A DNA stretch of 64,000 bases from a phage, in sequence record NC_135730.1, one strand, 5' to 3'. Below are positions 5,639 to 62,653 of this stretch, one piece after another. Made by a program: the position numbers and the translations under genes. Each line of letters starts with the position of its first letter. Positions within the stretch are counted from its first letter, which is position 1. The notes below the pieces were generated by a model that was not told the origin of the DNA, searched no databases, and worked only from the letters and a program-made list of their open reading frames with translations.

Positions 5639-5666
5639 TTGACACGCTGCAAAATTAAAGTAAACT
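5639..5666 (+). promoter_or_regulatory. sigma70-type promoter followed by 5' leader hairpin (5677-5695)
   Basis: TTGACA, 16 nt, TAAACT; leader hairpin ggcgggaatgtttcccgcc then CA-rich leader. Confidence 0.55.
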
Positions 5667-14646: not shown

Positions 14647-15066
14647 ATGAACATTAAATCTAATAATCCGGCATATAGCTTTGATAACGCTTTTTGTCAC
14701 GGTCCGGCGGCGAAAGGATTCGAAATCGATGGTAAACTAATTATTGTCAATGTTGACGGGGAAGAGGTTGCAGTATATCCGGTGGCAGACGTTAAAAGCC
14801 GTTTGCAATGCCGCATGGATGTTACCGCCTATCAGCTTGATCCGGTCCGCATAGTTGCCCTGGTCCTGGAAGAAGAAATTAAAGCCATGCACCATAGCAA
14901 CAGGTTTATTGGTGACGCTCAGGATAATATGAAGGTATGCCGCTATAAAGTTAATGAAGTGCTTAAAGAATATGGATTTAAGGATCTGATGATCAAACGT
15001 GATGAAAAATTCCGCTACCGTAACGACCTGGCAAATCGGATTTTTGAAATATACGAATCATTATAA
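14647..15066 (+). CDS. hypothetical protein
   Basis: 139-aa track ORF; TTGACA/TATATT promoter at about 14567-14600. Confidence 0.65.
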   Translation: MNIKSNNPAYSFDNAFCHGPAAKGFEIDGKLIIVNVDGEEVAVYPVADVKSRLQCRMDVTAYQLDPVRIVALVLEEEIKAMHHSNRFIGDAQDNMKVCRYKVNEVLKEYGFKDLMIKRDEKFRYRNDLANRIFEIYESL

Positions 15067-15084
15067 TTTTTTAACTGAATTATC

Positions 15085-15110
15085 AAGGGGCTTAGGCCCC
15101 TTTCTTTTTG
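15085..15110 (+). terminator. rho-independent terminator ending the + strand early block
   Basis: aagggg-cttag-gcccct followed by TTCTTTTTG. Confidence 0.65.
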
Positions 15111-17500
15111 TCTGCTCTTCCCCCTACCATAAACGGCCCTACCTGGCAAGTGGAATAATTGACGAGCCATCAATCCCACACACTGTACAAATATACATGT
15201 AAAATAGCTATTGCATAACCTTTCATTGTGTGGTAGCAGGGCTATTTTACCCGTTTTCCCTTCCAAAATTGCACGTAATGCCGCTATTGCACAAATTTTA
15301 ACCTGATGCAGATCTTCAATATCTTGTCAACAAATAAAAATTCTTATAAGTCATACACTTACACCAACACAAAAGCGTTTTCTACGTGAAAAATCGAGTA
15401 TAACTATAGCCGCCAGATCTCAGAATTTACGTACGCTCACCATTCTATAGCCTGCTAAGTATTTATTCCAACCATAGAATAATGGAATAGTCAATACCTG
15501 CATAAAATAATTATTCGTTTAAATTGCATAACATAAATCAGCCAGGGTGTCAACATTTTTCGTAAACAGTCCGAAATTATCGCTGTGAATTATCATAAAC
15601 AGAGAAATCTTTAGTCGTCTAATGTTTACTGTACGTTACTATACTGACTGGAATCATTAGATGACTAAGAGAAAGATAAGAAATAATTAACAATACAATT
15701 ATTTTATCTGTAACAATAAGGCAACTATGCAAACGAATGGCATGGCGCGACGGAGTCGCGACATAATATAAAAGCAGTAACCATCACCCCCGTGATAGTT
15801 TGTCTGCAATCTATTAATCAGATCATAGTTGCCTTGTATTTAGTTAATCATGACATAACAAGCAAGGCAACTATAGATCTTCTAATAGTTGCCCTGCTTT
15901 TATATTATGTCATAGAAACACCCGAAGGGGTGACCAAAGGTCACCTGGCATAGCCAGCGAAAGATTATTAACTTGCTAATCGTTATCATGCAAACGAATG
16001 GCATGGCTTATAATTTTTGAGCAAATAGTCTATACGTGAACAGTGAGGCATGCAATAGTAACAATTGTTATTATATCCAGTGTTTAGTATGCCCAGTGTG
16101 TCAAAGGTGTCTAAAGTGTCAGACAAGTTTTTCTCCTCTTTGTCAAGTGCTGCATGAAAAATTTACAATCTGGTATGGTAGCATTTTTGCGGCCCTGTTT
16201 ACATCCAGTTGTGTATGTATAACCCTTGTTGTGTGGGCGTTTAGACGTCTGGACGGTTGGAAGTCTACAGGTCAATATCTAATCTATCGGCTGCTAACTA
16301 TATCCCACACAAATAGTAAGAAATATAATTGTTATATGCGTAAACAGTAACTCATGTTATCAATCCCTGTATGTATCGCCAGTGGTGCGCATAATGGGTA
16401 TTATGTTAAATTGCCCGTAATGATAATGGTTCTCACAATGATATGTATTCTCATTCCCCCACACAAAATAGATTGCAAATGTTGTGCCACTATGTGAACG
16501 GCCTCACCTATTAATTTGCCTCACTGCCTCGATATTTGAGAATTGTTATAAGAATGAGAAGTATTCCCATTTCGTCCGCCTGGCAGCACTCCTGTCGGTC
16601 AGGTCAAAATCGTGGTATAACTGGACCTGTTCAGATATTTCTGGCTGACTCTTCAGGCCTGTGTGGGAAAAGCCGACCCCTCCGGCGGCGGGGAGGGGGT
16701 CAATTAAAAAATTTACGGGGTATATGAAGCGCTCTTCAGGTAAGGCAGGTATTATGGGATGAAACCCTCTTCAGGTAATGATATTTGTGGGTGTGATATT
16801 TGCTGGAAAGCCAGATATGACGGGACTCCCGGCGGGGCAGGGGTAGTACAGACAGGGAAAATATGGAGGATGTGGTTGGGTAAATTGATCAGACAGGTAG
16901 AGTATGGAATATGTTATGAATATGTTAAATATAGAGGTTGAATATCTGTAGGATTTGTGTGTAAAATCAAAGACTTAAGTGGTGTTGTGGTATTTTCTAT
17001 AAATAATTCAAGTTTAATAGGTGATATTTGTCCCTATCTACTTTGTGTGGTAAACAGATTCAGATGAGATTGGTTTACGAGTGTATACATAATATACAAA
17101 TTAAAGATACAAGAAACCCCCCTCCCCCTTCGGCTACCATTCACCTTTTCCTCTGACTGGTACTTAAACACTTATTCAGACTCTTCAGGTTATCACCCAT
17201 ATATCATATGGCAGTGACTGGTGTCCTCCGGCCCCTCTTTCGTCACCCGTCCGCTTCGCCATGCTAATGCCATAGCCAAATGTTCGGTTGTTCACCCTGT
17301 TCACTCAGGTGTATCTCCATACCCCTTCAAACCGAAGAGAACAGAAAACCCGAATTACTCGGTAAAAGAAAAGAGAAGAACTTAATTTTATCAGGATAGG
17401 CAAGAATGTCAAGGCATGACTGCTCACTAAACAAGCAAACAGTCATGTGTGGGAGGTAAGTGATTGTGGTGGTGGGAAATTTAGTTGAAAGATGTGCTAC
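15111..17500. other. 2.4 kb non-coding repeat-rich region at the convergence of the two transcription blocks
   Basis: no credible ORF with RBS; nested inverted repeats 15757-15915, duplicated atgcaaacgaatggcatggc, four ctcttcagg repeats, CCCCTCCCCC motifs. Confidence 0.6.
16672..16705 (-). terminator. candidate minus-strand terminator
   Basis: gacccctcc/ggagggggtc hairpin followed on the minus strand by GGCTTTTCC. Confidence 0.35.
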
Positions 17501-17541
17501 AGGTGCGCTTCCAGCACTTTAGCCGGGCAGCTAATTGTGTG

Positions 17542-21536: not shown

Positions 21537-21932
21537 TTACTGAAACAGTGCGGATAAATTACCTTCTGGTGGGAACTTATCTGCCAAAAACGGTGTTAGC
21601 ACAGTAGCCTTCTGAAGATCTGGGGTCCACTCGTTGTTCAGAACATCCCAGTAGTACGCAATGTTGCTGTGTGGGTGCCGCATTACGAACTTTTTCCCTT
21701 CGTAGTCATCTGAAACCTCTACAGAAGAAATAACAACAGAATCTTCAAGGGTTTCTTCATAGAAAGATCCGCCTTCAAATTTCCAACGAGATGCAAGAGC
21801 CCCTGCCTTGAACGCTGCAGATAACGGACTGTCGGCAAGAACATACATTTCTTGCACTCTGTCGCTGCGATCTTTGCTTCTTACGTTGTATACAGTATCT
21901 GAGCTATACTCAACACGGTATAGGCTTACCAT
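21537..21932 (-). CDS. hypothetical protein, paralog family B
   Basis: 131 aa; shares HP(D/H)S...YW(N/D)...(T/E)WTP with 23739-24137. Confidence 0.65.
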   Translation of the reverse strand: MVSLYRVEYSSDTVYNVRSKDRSDRVQEMYVLADSPLSAAFKAGALASRWKFEGGSFYEETLEDSVVISSVEVSDDYEGKKFVMRHPHSNIAYYWDVLNNEWTPDLQKATVLTPFLADKFPPEGNLSALFQ

Positions 21933-22623: not shown

Positions 22624-22893
22624 TTATTCCTCTACAATCTCATACACATCCGGAGTTACAATCAACTCTTCTCCGTTACCTGGTGCAACAAACACCACCA
22701 TTCCTTCAGGTGTGTGCTTTTTAGCCATCTCGATAACATCTTCTCGCAGAGCTGGCTCCATCAGATCAAAACCTTCACCCAGGGCATCACGAACCACCTT
22801 CATATAGTCAACTGGTTGTGCTTCGACAATCATGCCTTCAACCAGTCCACAGTTTTTGTCTGCCAGCTCAGTTTTGAATAATTTAATTTTCAT
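22624..22893 (-). CDS. small acidic protein (family A-like)
   Basis: 89-aa track ORF; MKIKLF start, YEIVEE end. Confidence 0.6.
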   Translation of the reverse strand: MKIKLFKTELADKNCGLVEGMIVEAQPVDYMKVVRDALGEGFDLMEPALREDVIEMAKKHTPEGMVVFVAPGNGEELIVTPDVYEIVEE

Positions 22894-23030
22894 TTAGAGG
22901 TCTCCTCAATTATTTGATATTAATAGCCGTAACCTAACACATTAACTACAACTGCGATTGCAAACATAATTTCAAAGCATGCAATCTCTACATTTGGGAC
23001 TAGTTTCTTAATCACGCCCATTGTAGCACC

Positions 23031-23348
23031 TCATTCTCCAAAGTCAATCTTTACTTTGCCTTTCCCCTTACCTTTCTTTCCACCGCATTTAGCCAGCTGA
23101 CGTGCTGCAACATCTACCATACGGTCAGTTGCCTCGTAAGCATCACCACCTTTAGCCTTGGCAATAACTTCTTTTCCAGAATTGTCAAAAATGAGCGCCA
23201 TAACTTCCTGGTGATCATTTTCAACTTTTACACTCACACGTGCATAGTTGGCAGAGGGGTGCAAACGCTCCAGCTTAGACATTTTGTGGGAAATGAAAGA
23301 CACCATACCTTCAGTGATTTCTACGTTGCCAGTGATTTCAATTTGCAT
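23031..23348 (-). CDS. hpf: ribosome hibernation-promoting factor (HPF/RaiA family) homolog with Lys/Gly-rich C-terminal tail
   Basis: MQIEITGNVEITEGM...KLERL...VKVEN...ARQLAK parallels E. coli HPF MQLNITGNNVEITEAL...KLEQY...LKVEK...ARQLTK as recalled. Confidence 0.65.
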   Translation of the reverse strand: MQIEITGNVEITEGMVSFISHKMSKLERLHPSANYARVSVKVENDHQEVMALIFDNSGKEVIAKAKGGDAYEATDRMVDVAARQLAKCGGKKGKGKGKVKIDFGE

Positions 23349-23430
23349 AACGTGTTCCTTTTAAAGAAGAGGGAACCAAACCCTCTTTGAAAACAATGAT
23401 ACTAAATCTGAAGCGTTGTGTCAACAGTTT

Positions 23431-23738: not shown

Positions 23739-24137
23739 TCAGTTTAGCTTTTCTTCAACAACCCCATAACTTGGGGCAGAGTCAAGAGCTTTCTGGTTTA
23801 AAAGTGGCGTAGCAGAATCTGCAAACGGTGTCCAAGTTTTTGTTCTGGCATTCCAGTAATGCTTCACTCTGGAATCTGGATGCACTATAACAAAAACTTT
23901 TTCACTTGTCAACACATTAATTTCTTCTACACCCTTGCTGATAATTTCTCCGTCATAGCCCCCAGTCTGGTATCCTTCGTACCAGGTTCTTGCATAGGCA
24001 TAGCCAGCCTGCCAGCATGCAGCCTCCTCCGAGGTGGAGACTACGTAGAAGTCTTTCTCAAATTCTGGAATACGCCCTTGCTTTACGCTCCAAGCCCCGC
24101 GAATTTTCATTGTAACTTTAAACAGTTTATTTTTCAC
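23739..24137 (-). CDS. hypothetical protein, paralog family B
   Basis: 132 aa; paralog of 21537-21932. Confidence 0.65.
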   Translation of the reverse strand: MKNKLFKVTMKIRGAWSVKQGRIPEFEKDFYVVSTSEEAACWQAGYAYARTWYEGYQTGGYDGEIISKGVEEINVLTSEKVFVIVHPDSRVKHYWNARTKTWTPFADSATPLLNQKALDSAPSYGVVEEKLN

Positions 24138-24149
24138 AACGGTTACCCA

Positions 24150-24404
24150 TCACAGCTCTACAATATCTGCATCTGACCCTACCCCAAAGGCATAATAGGA
24201 CTCTTCCCCGAAATAGTATTCAGGTGCACCAGCGGTGATCAGGTCTGATCCCAAGATAAACACCACGTTGTGGCCTACATAACTGTGATGTTGCCGCACA
24301 GGATCATCCCACGGCAACCCTTCAAAGTATACCGCAGGAACGACCTTTCCATTCAGGAAGGATTGTCCCAAGTAGACGTTAGAATCAAGAATTTTAACCT
24401 TCAT
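24150..24404 (-). CDS. small acidic protein, paralog family A
   Basis: MKVKILDSNVYLGQ...GSDLITAGAPE...DADIVEL. Confidence 0.65.
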   Translation of the reverse strand: MKVKILDSNVYLGQSFLNGKVVPAVYFEGLPWDDPVRQHHSYVGHNVVFILGSDLITAGAPEYYFGEESYYAFGVGSDADIVEL

Positions 24405-24621
24405 GATCGTCCTCCACTACCTCTACATCCTCACCTAGGGCAAAGTTATAGGTCCACTGACTGTCAAAGCATTCCTGAGATGCACCAGCGGCAATAAGAT
24501 CTGCTCCTTTTATTTTTAAAAGGTCAGGGTAATCTTCGTTAGGGACAGCAGTAAACACTTTTCCTACTAAAGGCTCCTGACCAATATAGAAGCTTGAATC
24601 TAAAACTTTAACTTTCATCAA
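24394..24621 (-). CDS. small acidic protein, paralog family A
   Basis: MKVKVLDSSFYIGQ...GADLIAAGAS...DVEVVED. Confidence 0.65.
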   Translation of the reverse strand: MMKVKVLDSSFYIGQEPLVGKVFTAVPNEDYPDLLKIKGADLIAAGASQECFDSQWTYNFALGEDVEVVEDDHEG

Positions 24622-59994: not shown

Positions 59995-60069
59995 GCCCTG
60001 TTAGCTTAGTGGATAAAGCAGCGGCCTTCTAAGCCGTTGACACTGGTTCGAGTCCAGTACGGGGTGCCA
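59995..60069 (+). tRNA. tRNA-Arg (anticodon UCU)
   Basis: manual cloverleaf; anticodon loop CTTCTAA; T-loop GGTTCGAGTCC; CCA present. Confidence 0.7.
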
Positions 60070-60073
60070 AATT

Positions 60074-60160
60074 GGGGAGTTATCCCGTAGAGGTAGCGGT
60101 GTAGACTGTAAATCTATTGTCATTGCGACTCGGGTGGTTCGACTCCACCACTCCCCACCA
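60074..60160 (+). tRNA. tRNA-Tyr (anticodon GUA), type II
   Basis: acceptor GGGGAGT/ACTCCCC; loop CTGTAAA; long variable arm; T-loop TTCGACT. Confidence 0.7.
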
Positions 60161-60274
60161 AATTTATATTTTTAGATGCATAAATAATACAGATAATGGC
60201 ATTGATATTTATCGTCGTTTATACTAGTCACTAACTGCTCGAAAATCAGTGTCATTATCAGTATAATTTATAAA

Positions 60275-60365
60275 GGAGGGTAGGGAGCAATGGTGCTCAA
60301 GCGGTCTTGAAAACCGTCCCGTTGAGGATGACTCGATGATGGTTCGATTCCATTACTCTCCGCCA
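60275..60365 (+). tRNA. tRNA-Ser (anticodon UGA), type II
   Basis: anticodon arm CGGTCTTGAAAACCG matches E. coli tRNA-Ser as recalled; long variable arm. Confidence 0.75.
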
Positions 60366-60463
60366 CATTGTTGACCTTGTAATTAAGCGAAAGCCGGAAG
60401 CAGAACCGGATTATCAAATGTTACAGTCGTCATCGCCGACTAGCAACATGGTCAACATACTGA

Positions 60464-60562
60464 GCTAGGTAAGCCCTTTGGCAAGGGCGAGGATTTTTAA
60501 TCCTGAAAATAGACGAGGTAGTCGTTGAATACATAGGTGGTTCGATTCCATCGCCTAGCACC
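60464..60562 (+). tRNA. atypical type-II-length tRNA-like gene, anticodon ambiguous (UUU or UAA)
   Basis: good acceptor, D and T arms; anticodon stem only 4 bp; about 29-nt variable region. Confidence 0.4.
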
Positions 60563-60567
60563 TTTTT

Positions 60568-60643
60568 GCTGATGTAGCACAATCGGTAGTGCAATTGATT
60601 TGTAATCAATAGGTTGTAGGTTCAAGTCCTGCCATCAGCACCA
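60568..60643 (+). tRNA. tRNA-Thr (anticodon UGU)
   Basis: all four stems pair cleanly; loop TTTGTAA. Confidence 0.8.
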
Positions 60644-60644
60644 A

Positions 60645-60719
60645 GGCCCTGTAGCTGGAAGGTTCAAGCAAGCGACTCATAATCGCCAGACGGTGGTTCA
60701 ATTCCACCCAGGGCCACCA
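60645..60719 (+). tRNA. tRNA with CAU anticodon (Met or lysidine-Ile)
   Basis: acceptor GGCCCTG/CAGGGCC; loop CTCATAA; T-stem GGTGG/CCACC. Confidence 0.7.
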
Positions 60720-60730
60720 AATAGTAAATA

Positions 60731-60807
60731 CTCCGCGTAGCTCAGCTTGGTAGAGCGCCTGATTTGGGATCAGGAGGTCGAGTGTTCGAATCACTCCGTG
60801 GAGACCA
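60731..60807 (+). tRNA. tRNA-Pro (anticodon UGG)
   Basis: C1:G72 first pair typical of bacterial tRNA-Pro; loop TTTGGGA; clean cloverleaf. Confidence 0.8.
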
Positions 60808-61911: not shown

Positions 61912-62336
61912 TGTCTAAGATTTACGGACCGTGTTCTGAAAAGCAGAAGATGATCCTCGAAAACGATGCAGATATTTTGGTAATCGGCGGTGCCGCAGGG
62001 TCTGGCAAGTCGTTCCTCTTGCAGTTGATGCCGCTTAAAATTATTGATGACCCCCACAGCTCTGTGGTTATGTTCCGAAGAACAACCCCACAGTTGGAAG
62101 GTGAGGGTGGGCTATGGCCTAAAGCAGTAGCTATTTATAGTGATCTGCCTGAAAACATTAAGCCAAAGTTCAGAGAGAAGGATCATAAGTTCATTTTCCC
62201 ACGGTTTGATCCGAGCACTGGCAAGTGGGATAGAAGCAAAAAGGGAGCTGTTGTAAAATACTGCCACATGGAGTATGTCCAAGATAAGCTTAACCATCAA
62301 GGTCTTGAGTACACCATGGTTTGCTTCGATGAGGGT
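61911..62336 (+). CDS. terminase large subunit, exon 1 (ATPase domain)
   Basis: Walker A GGAAGSGKS, Walker B MVCFDE; ends at intron 5' splice site. Confidence 0.8.
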
Positions 62337-62653
62337 TAATTTGTAGCTCTCGTAAAACCTCCCTAATTGCGGGGAAATCTTTACTATTAATACCACCAAC
62401 CTGTCATGGTAACATGATAGAGGCTTCGAAGAGAGATCGAAGGTATGGTAACAGTGTGTTAATTTAGATAATCCGCAGCGAAGCATCCGAGAGGATGAAC
62501 GTTCAACGACTAGTCGAAAGACGTAGAATCAAGCGATTCGAAACGGGAGGGTAAGCGGTTGTTGTCGCTTATAAGATATAGTCTGGTCTGCATGGAGACA
62601 TGCAGCTGCCTGAAAAATGGCGGGGCAAGACTAGCGACCTTGCCCGAACATAG
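62337..62653 (+). mobile_element. ORF-less group I intron in terminase large subunit gene (3' boundary +/- 3 nt)
   Basis: all four core elements in order: P AAUUGCGGGGAAA (about 62364), Q AAUCCGCAGC (about 62470), R GUUCAACGACUAG (about 62501), S AAGAUAUAGUCU (about 62573). Confidence 0.75.

Follow-up and report, generated by a model that had tools for sequence, protein, structure and literature searches.

What use does a phage make of a protein that resembles the ribosome hibernation factors of bacteria? The question is raised by a 64,000-nucleotide phage sequence (record NC_135730.1; this whole stretch is called the window below), which represents an rV5-like Vequintavirus genome. The 3-kb stretch around the gene of interest is 92–99.6% identical to 120 phage records. 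On the minus strand it contains an open reading frame (ORF) for 105 amino acids, which an earlier note, made from the sequence alone, had ascribed to the hibernation-promoting factor (HPF)/RaiA family. The coordinates given there hold exactly, the start codon being ATG (Table 1), and so does the homology, which profile, pairwise and fold evidence all uphold. We refer to the gene as hpf. Its product is a short-HPF-like member of the HPF/YfiA family, neither a RaiA nor a long HPF. As to its role, we tentatively favour that of a weak, reversible binder of the decoding channel that would compete with host HPF and RMF in a YfiA-like manner.

Family, fold and phage distribution of the protein

The profile search that the earlier note had proposed as a check gave a significant match to Pfam PF02482 (Ribosomal_S30AE; 48.4 bits, the gathering cutoff being 23.7; E = 1.6e-12; residues 3–88). 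The NCBIfam model of the HPF/YfiA family, TIGR00741, also scored above its cutoff (45 bits versus 40.9). In pairwise BLASTP comparisons, the phage protein was 42% identical to HPF of Escherichia coli K-12 over 92 residues (E = 7e-18) and 25% identical to RaiA of the same strain. Its N-terminal strand, MQIEITGN(N)VEITE, is almost the same as in E. coli HPF, and the three E. coli HPF segments that the note had quoted as similar (MQLNITGNNVEITEAL, LKVEK and ARQLTK) proved right when set against the actual sequence. Sequence matches in the PDB were to the E. coli HPF entries 2rql, 4v8h and 6h4n (E about 1e-11, best 8e-12; residues 1–89 with one gap). An AlphaFold2 model with a predicted local distance difference test score (pLDDT) of 83.7 shows strands at residues 2–7, 33–42, 47–55 and 60–67 and helices at residues 13–29 and 70–89. 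The top 35 Foldseek matches of this model in the PDB were all HPF, YfiA or protein Y structures. For the HPFs of Vibrio cholerae and E. coli, the root-mean-square deviations ranged from 1.1 to 1.5 Å, with 1.1 Å for V. cholerae HPF (90 columns) and 1.2 Å for E. coli HPF in the 100S ribosome (6h4n); these are comparisons of a predicted model, not of a solved structure of the phage protein.

Within the family, the top-scoring subfamily was the enterobacterial/gammaproteobacterial HPF equivalog NF007780, with 55 bits against a cutoff of 125. The RaiA/YfiA equivalog NF007654 gave 17 bits against a cutoff of 158, and equivalog level was reached in neither case. On these subfamily scores and the 25% identity, we reject the RaiA identity implied by the RefSeq label, which is a generic family name. 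The phage protein does have in common with E. coli RaiA/YfiA (protein Y) the fold, the family ribosomal site and a C-terminal extension past the end of short HPF. The C-terminal dimerisation domain of long HPFs (proteins of ~180–190 amino acids) was not found in the 105 residues, which comprise one Pfam domain followed by a disordered tail.

The gene is not new. Annotations of rV5-like coliphages have listed it since 2006, and it was published and partly tested in 2019. In rV5 (DQ832317), the annotation of ORF144 reads 'sigma 54 modulation factor; similar to Klebsiella oxytoca probable sigma(54) modulation protein'; other records name the gene hpf, ribosome hibernation factor or RaiA. The label 'ATP-dependent protease La type I', which it bears in some records, is wrong and represents an annotation-propagation error. 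The rV5 protein (ABI79209) is one of the viral HPFs of Mizuno et al. (2019; Nat Commun 10:752, PMC6375957), together with those of FV3, JES-2013, FFH2 and typing-phage-14. The window carries the same gene, with 98% amino acid identity (two substitutions only, L52F and G68S) and with agreement in length, neighbours and promoter (P144). A paper of 2020 mentioned the gene, 'as already described', for five more rV5-like isolates, and our literature searches retrieved no functional study of a phage HPF later than that of 2019. The pattern of lost and retained contact residues, the comparison of the tails and a corrected reading of the hairpin in the leader are useful additions of the present analysis.

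An exhaustive HMMER scan of 1.8 billion protein representatives found, below E = 1e-10, only one other cluster at the 50% identity level, the divergent phage clade P0004. Bacterial HPFs came next, at 30–45% identity, and this gap indicates that the capture from a host is old. A word-indexed protein search returned the phage clade only (five clusters), the bacterial HPFs being reached by the exhaustive search; two hits of the latter, P0006 and P0016, were spurious matches to repeat proteins. In the published phylogeny, the viral HPFs fall among gammaproteobacterial sequences (PMC6375957), and the best explanation is that an rV5-like phage ancestor captured the gene from a gammaproteobacterial host. 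Two other large myoviruses, Cronobacter phage GAP32 and Xanthomonas phage XaC1, likewise encode a Ribosomal_S30AE protein (PHROG 8990). The Vequintavirus protein has its own PHROG, 12469 ('unknown function'); against PHROG 8990 it reaches only E = 2e-6. Moreover, GAP32 is placed elsewhere in the tree than the Vequintavirus HPFs (PMC6375957). The GAP32 and XaC1 homologs are acquisitions separate from that of Vequintavirus. Phage homologs of hibernation factors are among the few cases of a virus carrying a direct ligand of the host decoding centre.

By tblastn, the protein was detected in 118 of the 120 matching phage records, with at least 92% identity, and the window allele is 100% identical to those of 'Campylobacter phage' C9 and A112b. 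Comparison with ten Vequintavirus orthologs by a gap-aware Nei-Gojobori method gave ratios of nonsynonymous to synonymous substitution rates (dN/dS) of 0.03–0.18, the alignment being gap-handled to accommodate an extra Asn codon carried by nomo, Murica and V18. Phage Aya, for example, differs from the window hpf by 24 synonymous and 7 nonsynonymous changes. The P0004 proteins are 103 amino acids long and 64% identical to that of the window; at this distance dS is saturated, and the ratio of the corresponding proportions of differences (pN/pS) is 0.27. P0004 is encoded in a small-ORF array of the same kind, on contigs of 124–137 kb. The divergent copies come from four loci (L001–L004) on contigs of 44–137 kb, including GCA_012894635.1 AATLQU010000010.1, with hpf in a syntenic array of small ORFs, and one of them lies in an assembly labelled E. 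coli. The four loci belong to a divergent rV5-like phage lineage, for which a search of the phage reference collection gave no match. Judging from this substitution pattern, hpf is under purifying selection; a decaying passenger gene is ruled out by the dN/dS range and by conservation in the 64%-identical syntenic clade.

The window itself finds its closest matches (99.6%) in records entitled 'UNVERIFIED: Campylobacter phage' (MG065658, MG065661, MG065682 and others), which are assigned to Vequintavirus although they bear that title, and which are almost identical to phages of E. coli. Their 'Campylobacter' host label is probably wrong.

Ribosome-contact residues, C-terminal tail and possible roles

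Members of the HPF family occupy the mRNA and tRNA sites of the ribosome. According to a cryo-electron microscopy comparison, five strictly conserved basic residues of helix alpha2 (K80, R83, K87, K89 and K91) contact 16S rRNA in the same way in every Gram-negative HPF, K26 and Q29 touch nucleotides 1496–1498, and the pair H55/E60 touches the C-terminus of uS9 (bioRxiv 10.1101/2025.10.07.680626). We located these positions in an alignment of the two phage clades with 14 bacterial sequences (E. coli HPF, RaiA and 12 other homologs). Both phage clades keep R83, K87, K91, K25 (equivalent to K26), R28 (equivalent to Q29) and E60, and the conserved core or contact positions D69, Y71, D75 and Q84 are retained as well. 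In helix alpha2, three of the five strictly conserved basic residues are kept and two replaced. K80, an invariant lysine in the 14 bacterial sequences, has become valine (threonine in P0004), and K89 has become glycine (serine in P0004). In addition, H55 is replaced by phenylalanine (F54), and the usually basic position of R17 by valine, in both phage clades. The phage protein thus shares with E. coli short HPF (YhbH) R83, K87, K91, the K26 equivalent and E60, but lacks its K80, K89, H55 and R17.

The Lys/Gly-rich tail described in the earlier note is present. Its 17 residues stand in place of the C-terminus of short HPF, KDKLKQH, so that the phage tail is longer by 10 residues, and residues 91–105 are predicted to be disordered (pLDDT below 50). 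The tail has a net charge of +4, compared with +2 for the 7-residue tail of E. coli HPF and −3 for that of YfiA, and the isoelectric point of the whole protein is 8.7 versus 6.5 for E. coli HPF. At the DNA level the tail is encoded by a low-complexity AAG/GGN run. The P0004 tail, SKSKGIDKRTAKWDY, differs in sequence and is basic as well. In the cellular proteins, the final residues at the C-terminus of HPF contact the ribosome, and the YfiA tail heads toward the RMF site and is linked with 70S rather than 100S hibernation (bioRxiv 10.1101/2025.10.07.680626).

These features can be combined into the mechanism that we tentatively favour. Host RNA polymerase with sigma-70 would transcribe the gene from the near-consensus promoter that belongs to it, described below, and this type of promoter makes early expression probable. 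The protein would bind idle host 30S subunits or 70S ribosomes at the canonical decoding-channel site via R83, K87, K91, K25 and E60. With K80, K89 and H55 lost, and R17 replaced too, this binding may be weaker, reversible and salt-sensitive, which would explain a published negative pull-down. The basic, disordered tail might then confer a YfiA-like effect, whereby ribosomes would be held as protected, quickly reusable monomers and HPF and RMF would be outcompeted; we infer this direction of effect as more likely than the driving of RMF-dependent 100S dimers. Competition of the viral protein with cellular HPF, preventing ribosome dimers, has already been suggested (PMC6375957). If an rV5-type protein does tune or counter host hibernation, this would bear on the ways in which lytic phages make use of bacteria that grow slowly or are stationary. 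It would be relevant to phage therapy, since members of Vequintavirus are used against pathogens including E. coli O157. The differences at residue level point to concrete experiments on the role of the phage HPF.

In the published test, rV5 HPF was expressed from pBAD24 in E. coli NM522 and cells were harvested at an optical density at 600 nm (OD600) of 1. Ribosomes were passed through a 500 mM NH4Cl sucrose cushion, and mass spectrometry was applied to the 70S and 100S fractions (PMC6375957). No viral HPF peptide was detected in either fraction, compared with four in the crude extract, and at the end of exponential phase 100S ribosomes showed no discernible change on expression. As possible reasons the authors named the growth phase, stripping by salt and a genuine loss of binding (PMC6375957). 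We consider this negative weak, as the conditions were stringent and are not decisive. In cells at OD600 = 1 and at 500 mM NH4Cl, RMF is scarce and hibernation factors tend to be stripped off ribosomes. The earlier note had held that its proposal would fail in the absence of both a significant profile match and an effect on ribosome profiles. The match is significant, as reported above; the ribosome profiles of the 2019 study were unchanged, under these non-decisive conditions. The lack of a 100S increase and of a salt-stable association agrees with weak binding and with a function other than the promotion of dimers.

The same result bears on the possibility that the protein is a canonical short HPF, which together with host RMF would turn 70S ribosomes into 100S dimers and so spare them, for instance in starved or stationary hosts, until the phage uses them. 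The protein is indeed closer to short HPF than to RaiA in both identity (42% versus 25%) and subfamily score (55 versus 17 bits). Its best structural matches include E. coli HPF in the 100S ribosome (6h4n), R83, K87, K91 and E60 are retained, and the negative outcome was obtained with OD600 = 1 cells and a 500 mM NH4Cl wash. Nevertheless, expression left 100S ribosomes without discernible change, two lysines that are strictly conserved in cellular HPFs are gone, and the ribosome-contacting C-terminus has been replaced by a basic tail 10 residues longer. Furthermore, the locking of ribosomes into dimers early in the lytic cycle is hard to square with the translation needs of a phage. We regard a canonical role as unlikely.

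Absence from ribosomes, with loss of binding among the possibilities named by the authors (PMC6375957), would also agree with a neofunctionalised RNA-binding protein, which would have kept the HPF fold, abandoned the decoding centre and turned to another RNA or protein target via its basic tail. Several observations point in this direction: both phage clades have substitutions at four conserved contact or basic positions, the family is isolated (one other 50%-identity cluster at E < 1e-10 among 1.8 billion proteins), and the fold is of the double-stranded RNA-binding domain type, with weak Foldseek matches to these domains in Staufen and Loqs, ranked under the HPF matches. However, most of the conserved core and contact positions are retained and the N-terminal strand is almost unchanged from E. 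coli HPF. We consider such a change of target rather improbable.

Several points weigh against the weak decoding-channel binder that we favour. To the missing peptides in the 70S and 100S fractions, for which genuine loss of binding is one of the published explanations, can be added the subfamily scores (55 of 125 bits and 17 of 158), because of which the protein does not qualify as a functional equivalog of either HPF or RaiA. In sequence, the phage tail does not resemble that of YfiA, the two being unrelated and opposite in charge. Early timing is deduced from the promoter type only, and the rV5 genome paper describes sigma-70-like promoters throughout the genome. An HPF-like protein in the A and P sites blocks translation, so that any benefit to the phage needs fast release. 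Finally, two relatives carry lesions in the gene. In YP-6 (L014, 401–412), codon 4 has changed from GAA to TAA, the annotation restarting at Met15, and in Murica (L008) a 1-nt deletion in GGGGAAAGG, the A-rich run coding for the tail, truncates the tail and leaves 99 amino acids. Because of these alleles, which are natural lesions unless they are sequencing errors, hpf appears dispensable, at least in laboratory propagation.

A related mechanism would make the protein an anti-hibernation factor: through the loss of K80 and K89 it would bind the decoding channel of 30S subunits reversibly, its disordered Lys-rich tail would reach the RMF/anti-Shine-Dalgarno region in the manner of the YfiA tail, and host RMF and HPF would be blocked or displaced, so that 100S ribosomes would be prevented or undone. 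We give this version little credence. Were it true, a phage in slow-growing gut E. coli would gain protected, quickly reactivated ribosomes, and the protein would be a viral counter to hibernation as a passive defence.

Promoter and leader of hpf

The sigma-70-type promoter of hpf, which matches the consensus at 11 of 12 positions, sits between the stop codon of the upstream gene and hpf (Table 1). In DQ832317 it is annotated as 'Sigma70-type promoter; P144', directly 5' of ORF144. For an extended form of the motif, TGTTGACA, the window has 21 occurrences compared with 3.2 expected, and the −35 element with its flank, AAACTGTTGACAC, is kept upstream of the 64%-identical ortholog at locus L001. 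The Shine-Dalgarno sequence AAGGA is kept in 10 Vequintavirus loci and is unpaired in the predicted fold of the leader.

This promoter, and the location of the gene within a block made up of 88 ORFs, most of them small (in rV5, part of a proposed transcription unit of genes 82–163, according to the genome paper), would suit a protein for host shut-off or translation reprogramming. Made early, and acting at the A/P site in the way that RaiA acts in cold shock, it would block vacant host ribosomes or initiation complexes and thereby lower host protein synthesis or favour phage mRNAs. Family members do sit in the mRNA and tRNA sites, and the phage carries other translation-related cargo in the form of a tRNA cluster (59995–60807). 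However, no growth or ribosome-profile defect was reported upon expression in E. coli (PMC6375957), there is no known means by which the protein would tell phage from host mRNAs, and the weakened contact set speaks against a tight inhibitor. We consider this role quite unlikely.

The predicted transcription start near 23389 places a stem-loop at the very 5' end of the hpf mRNA, at about +2 to +22. The earlier note had seen this hairpin and proposed it as an attenuator. The stem-loop exists; its position had been given as 23355–23375, which is wrong by 12 nt, the actual one being 23367–23387. Its stability is modest (z-score −0.99 against dinucleotide shuffles of 44 nt and −2.2 against mononucleotide shuffles of 40 nt). 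Among Vequintavirus relatives the stem is kept and the loop varies. YP-6 has an 8-bp stem with one compensatory change from G-C to A-U, and in Murica, nomo, V18 and A142 an A.C mismatch lowers the stability of the stem to −5.3 to −7 kcal/mol. The stem-loop is absent from the divergent ortholog locus L001.

The attenuator proposal has not stood up. In favour of a transcription attenuator or terminator controlling hpf, a conserved 7-bp stem-loop does lie between promoter and Shine-Dalgarno sequence, with one compensatory change among relatives. Yet the sequence 3' of the stem, CUUUAAAA, is not a U-tract, the hairpin was not called in a terminator scan of the window, and rV5 (DQ832317) has no terminator annotated there. 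The hpf leader has neither a leader ORF nor an alternative to its single predicted fold, in which no part of the stem pairs with the Shine-Dalgarno sequence, and an Rfam scan of it matched no family. The weaker stems of several relatives, the absence from the divergent locus and the existence of like stem-loops after other promoters of the window also argue against such control, as does the location of the hairpin downstream of the promoter of hpf itself. We reject this reading, which seems very improbable.

Most plausibly, by analogy, the hairpin would be a 5'-terminal stabiliser of the mRNA, an established role of 5' stem-loops in E. coli. Comparable stem-loops begin 6–8 nt past the predicted start at no fewer than five other sigma-70-like promoters of the window (plus strand, TTGACA starting at 5639, 6310, 8177, 12003 and 13529), with z-scores from −1.5 to −7.3. 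The recurring module consists of a sigma-70-like promoter, a G+C-rich stem-loop (e.g., GGCGGGAAnnnTTCCCGCC), an A/C-rich spacer and a Shine-Dalgarno sequence. It looks like a phage-wide leader design of which the hpf hairpin is one member, and because of these similar stem-loops the hpf hairpin is a generic promoter-proximal leader element.

Table 1. Position of hpf and of the elements around it in the window, with the basis of each call.
Feature	Position	Strand	Basis
hpf-like coding sequence (105 amino acids + stop), ortholog of rV5 ORF144	23031..23348	minus	ORF list, ATG start
Coding region of the basic C-terminal tail (residues 89–105, GGKKGKGKGKVKIDFGE)	23034..23084	minus	pLDDT, charge, alignment
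Shine-Dalgarno sequence AAGGA	23356..23360	minus	read from sequence, 7 nt 5' of ATG
Stem-loop of the 5' untranslated region, 7-bp stem AAGAGGG/CCCTCTT, 7-nt loop	23367..23387	minus	centroid structure, −9.9 kcal/mol
Sigma-70-type promoter TTGACA-17-TATCAT (11/12 consensus matches), rV5 P144	23396..23424	minus	promoter scan, DQ832317 annotation
Promoter-like TTGACT-16-TACAAT over the last hpf codons, upstream of the next ORF	23020..23047	minus	promoter scan and sequence
Hydrophobic 33-amino-acid ORF (MGVIKKLVPNVEIACFEIMFAIAVVVNVLGYGY, rV5 ORF145), directly after hpf	22920-23021	minus	ORF, no Pfam match

Neighbouring genes and other features of the window

None of ten neighbouring small ORFs that were tested belongs to a Pfam family. 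A second promoter-like sequence covers the end of the gene, its −35 hexamer TTGACT lying inside ATTGACTTT, which codes for the tail residues I-D-F. As the hexamer overlaps these codons, part of the conservation at the very C-terminus may be due to a DNA signal. Further along the minus strand lies an 89-amino-acid ORF (22624–22893), to which the records navn, nom, nomo, SophiaRose, ECP32 and ECP2309 give the label of a second 'sigma 54 modulation factor'. This ORF has no Pfam or S30AE match, and we attribute the label to an annotation-propagation error. Also on the minus strand, the ORFs at 21537–21932 and 23739–24137 and those at 24150–24404 and 24394–24621 appear by eye to be paralog pairs, with shared motifs such as '..YW....N.WTP' and 'MKVK.LDS..Y.GQ', again outside any Pfam family.

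The tRNA cluster, on the plus strand, comprises seven ARAGORN calls: Arg-tct, Tyr-gta, Ser-tga, Thr-tgt, Met-cat, Pro-tgg and one 'tRNA-???'. The latter (60464–60562) is 99 nt long with a four-base anticodon, atcc, and is not reported by the Rfam tRNA model, nor is the Ser gene. About 1.5 kb downstream of the cluster, a group I catalytic intron (RF00028) was detected at 62327–62605 on the plus strand, with 84 bits against a gathering threshold of 50. Finally, the rV5 genome paper describes a 2.6-kb stretch (104013–106618) with 'no observable ORFs', which corresponds to about 14927–17532 of the window. Here the interior ORFs encode at most 104 amino acids, with one ORF of 139 amino acids at the edge, and two promoter-like TGTTGACA sites lie on the minus strand, at 15325–15332 and 15548–15555.

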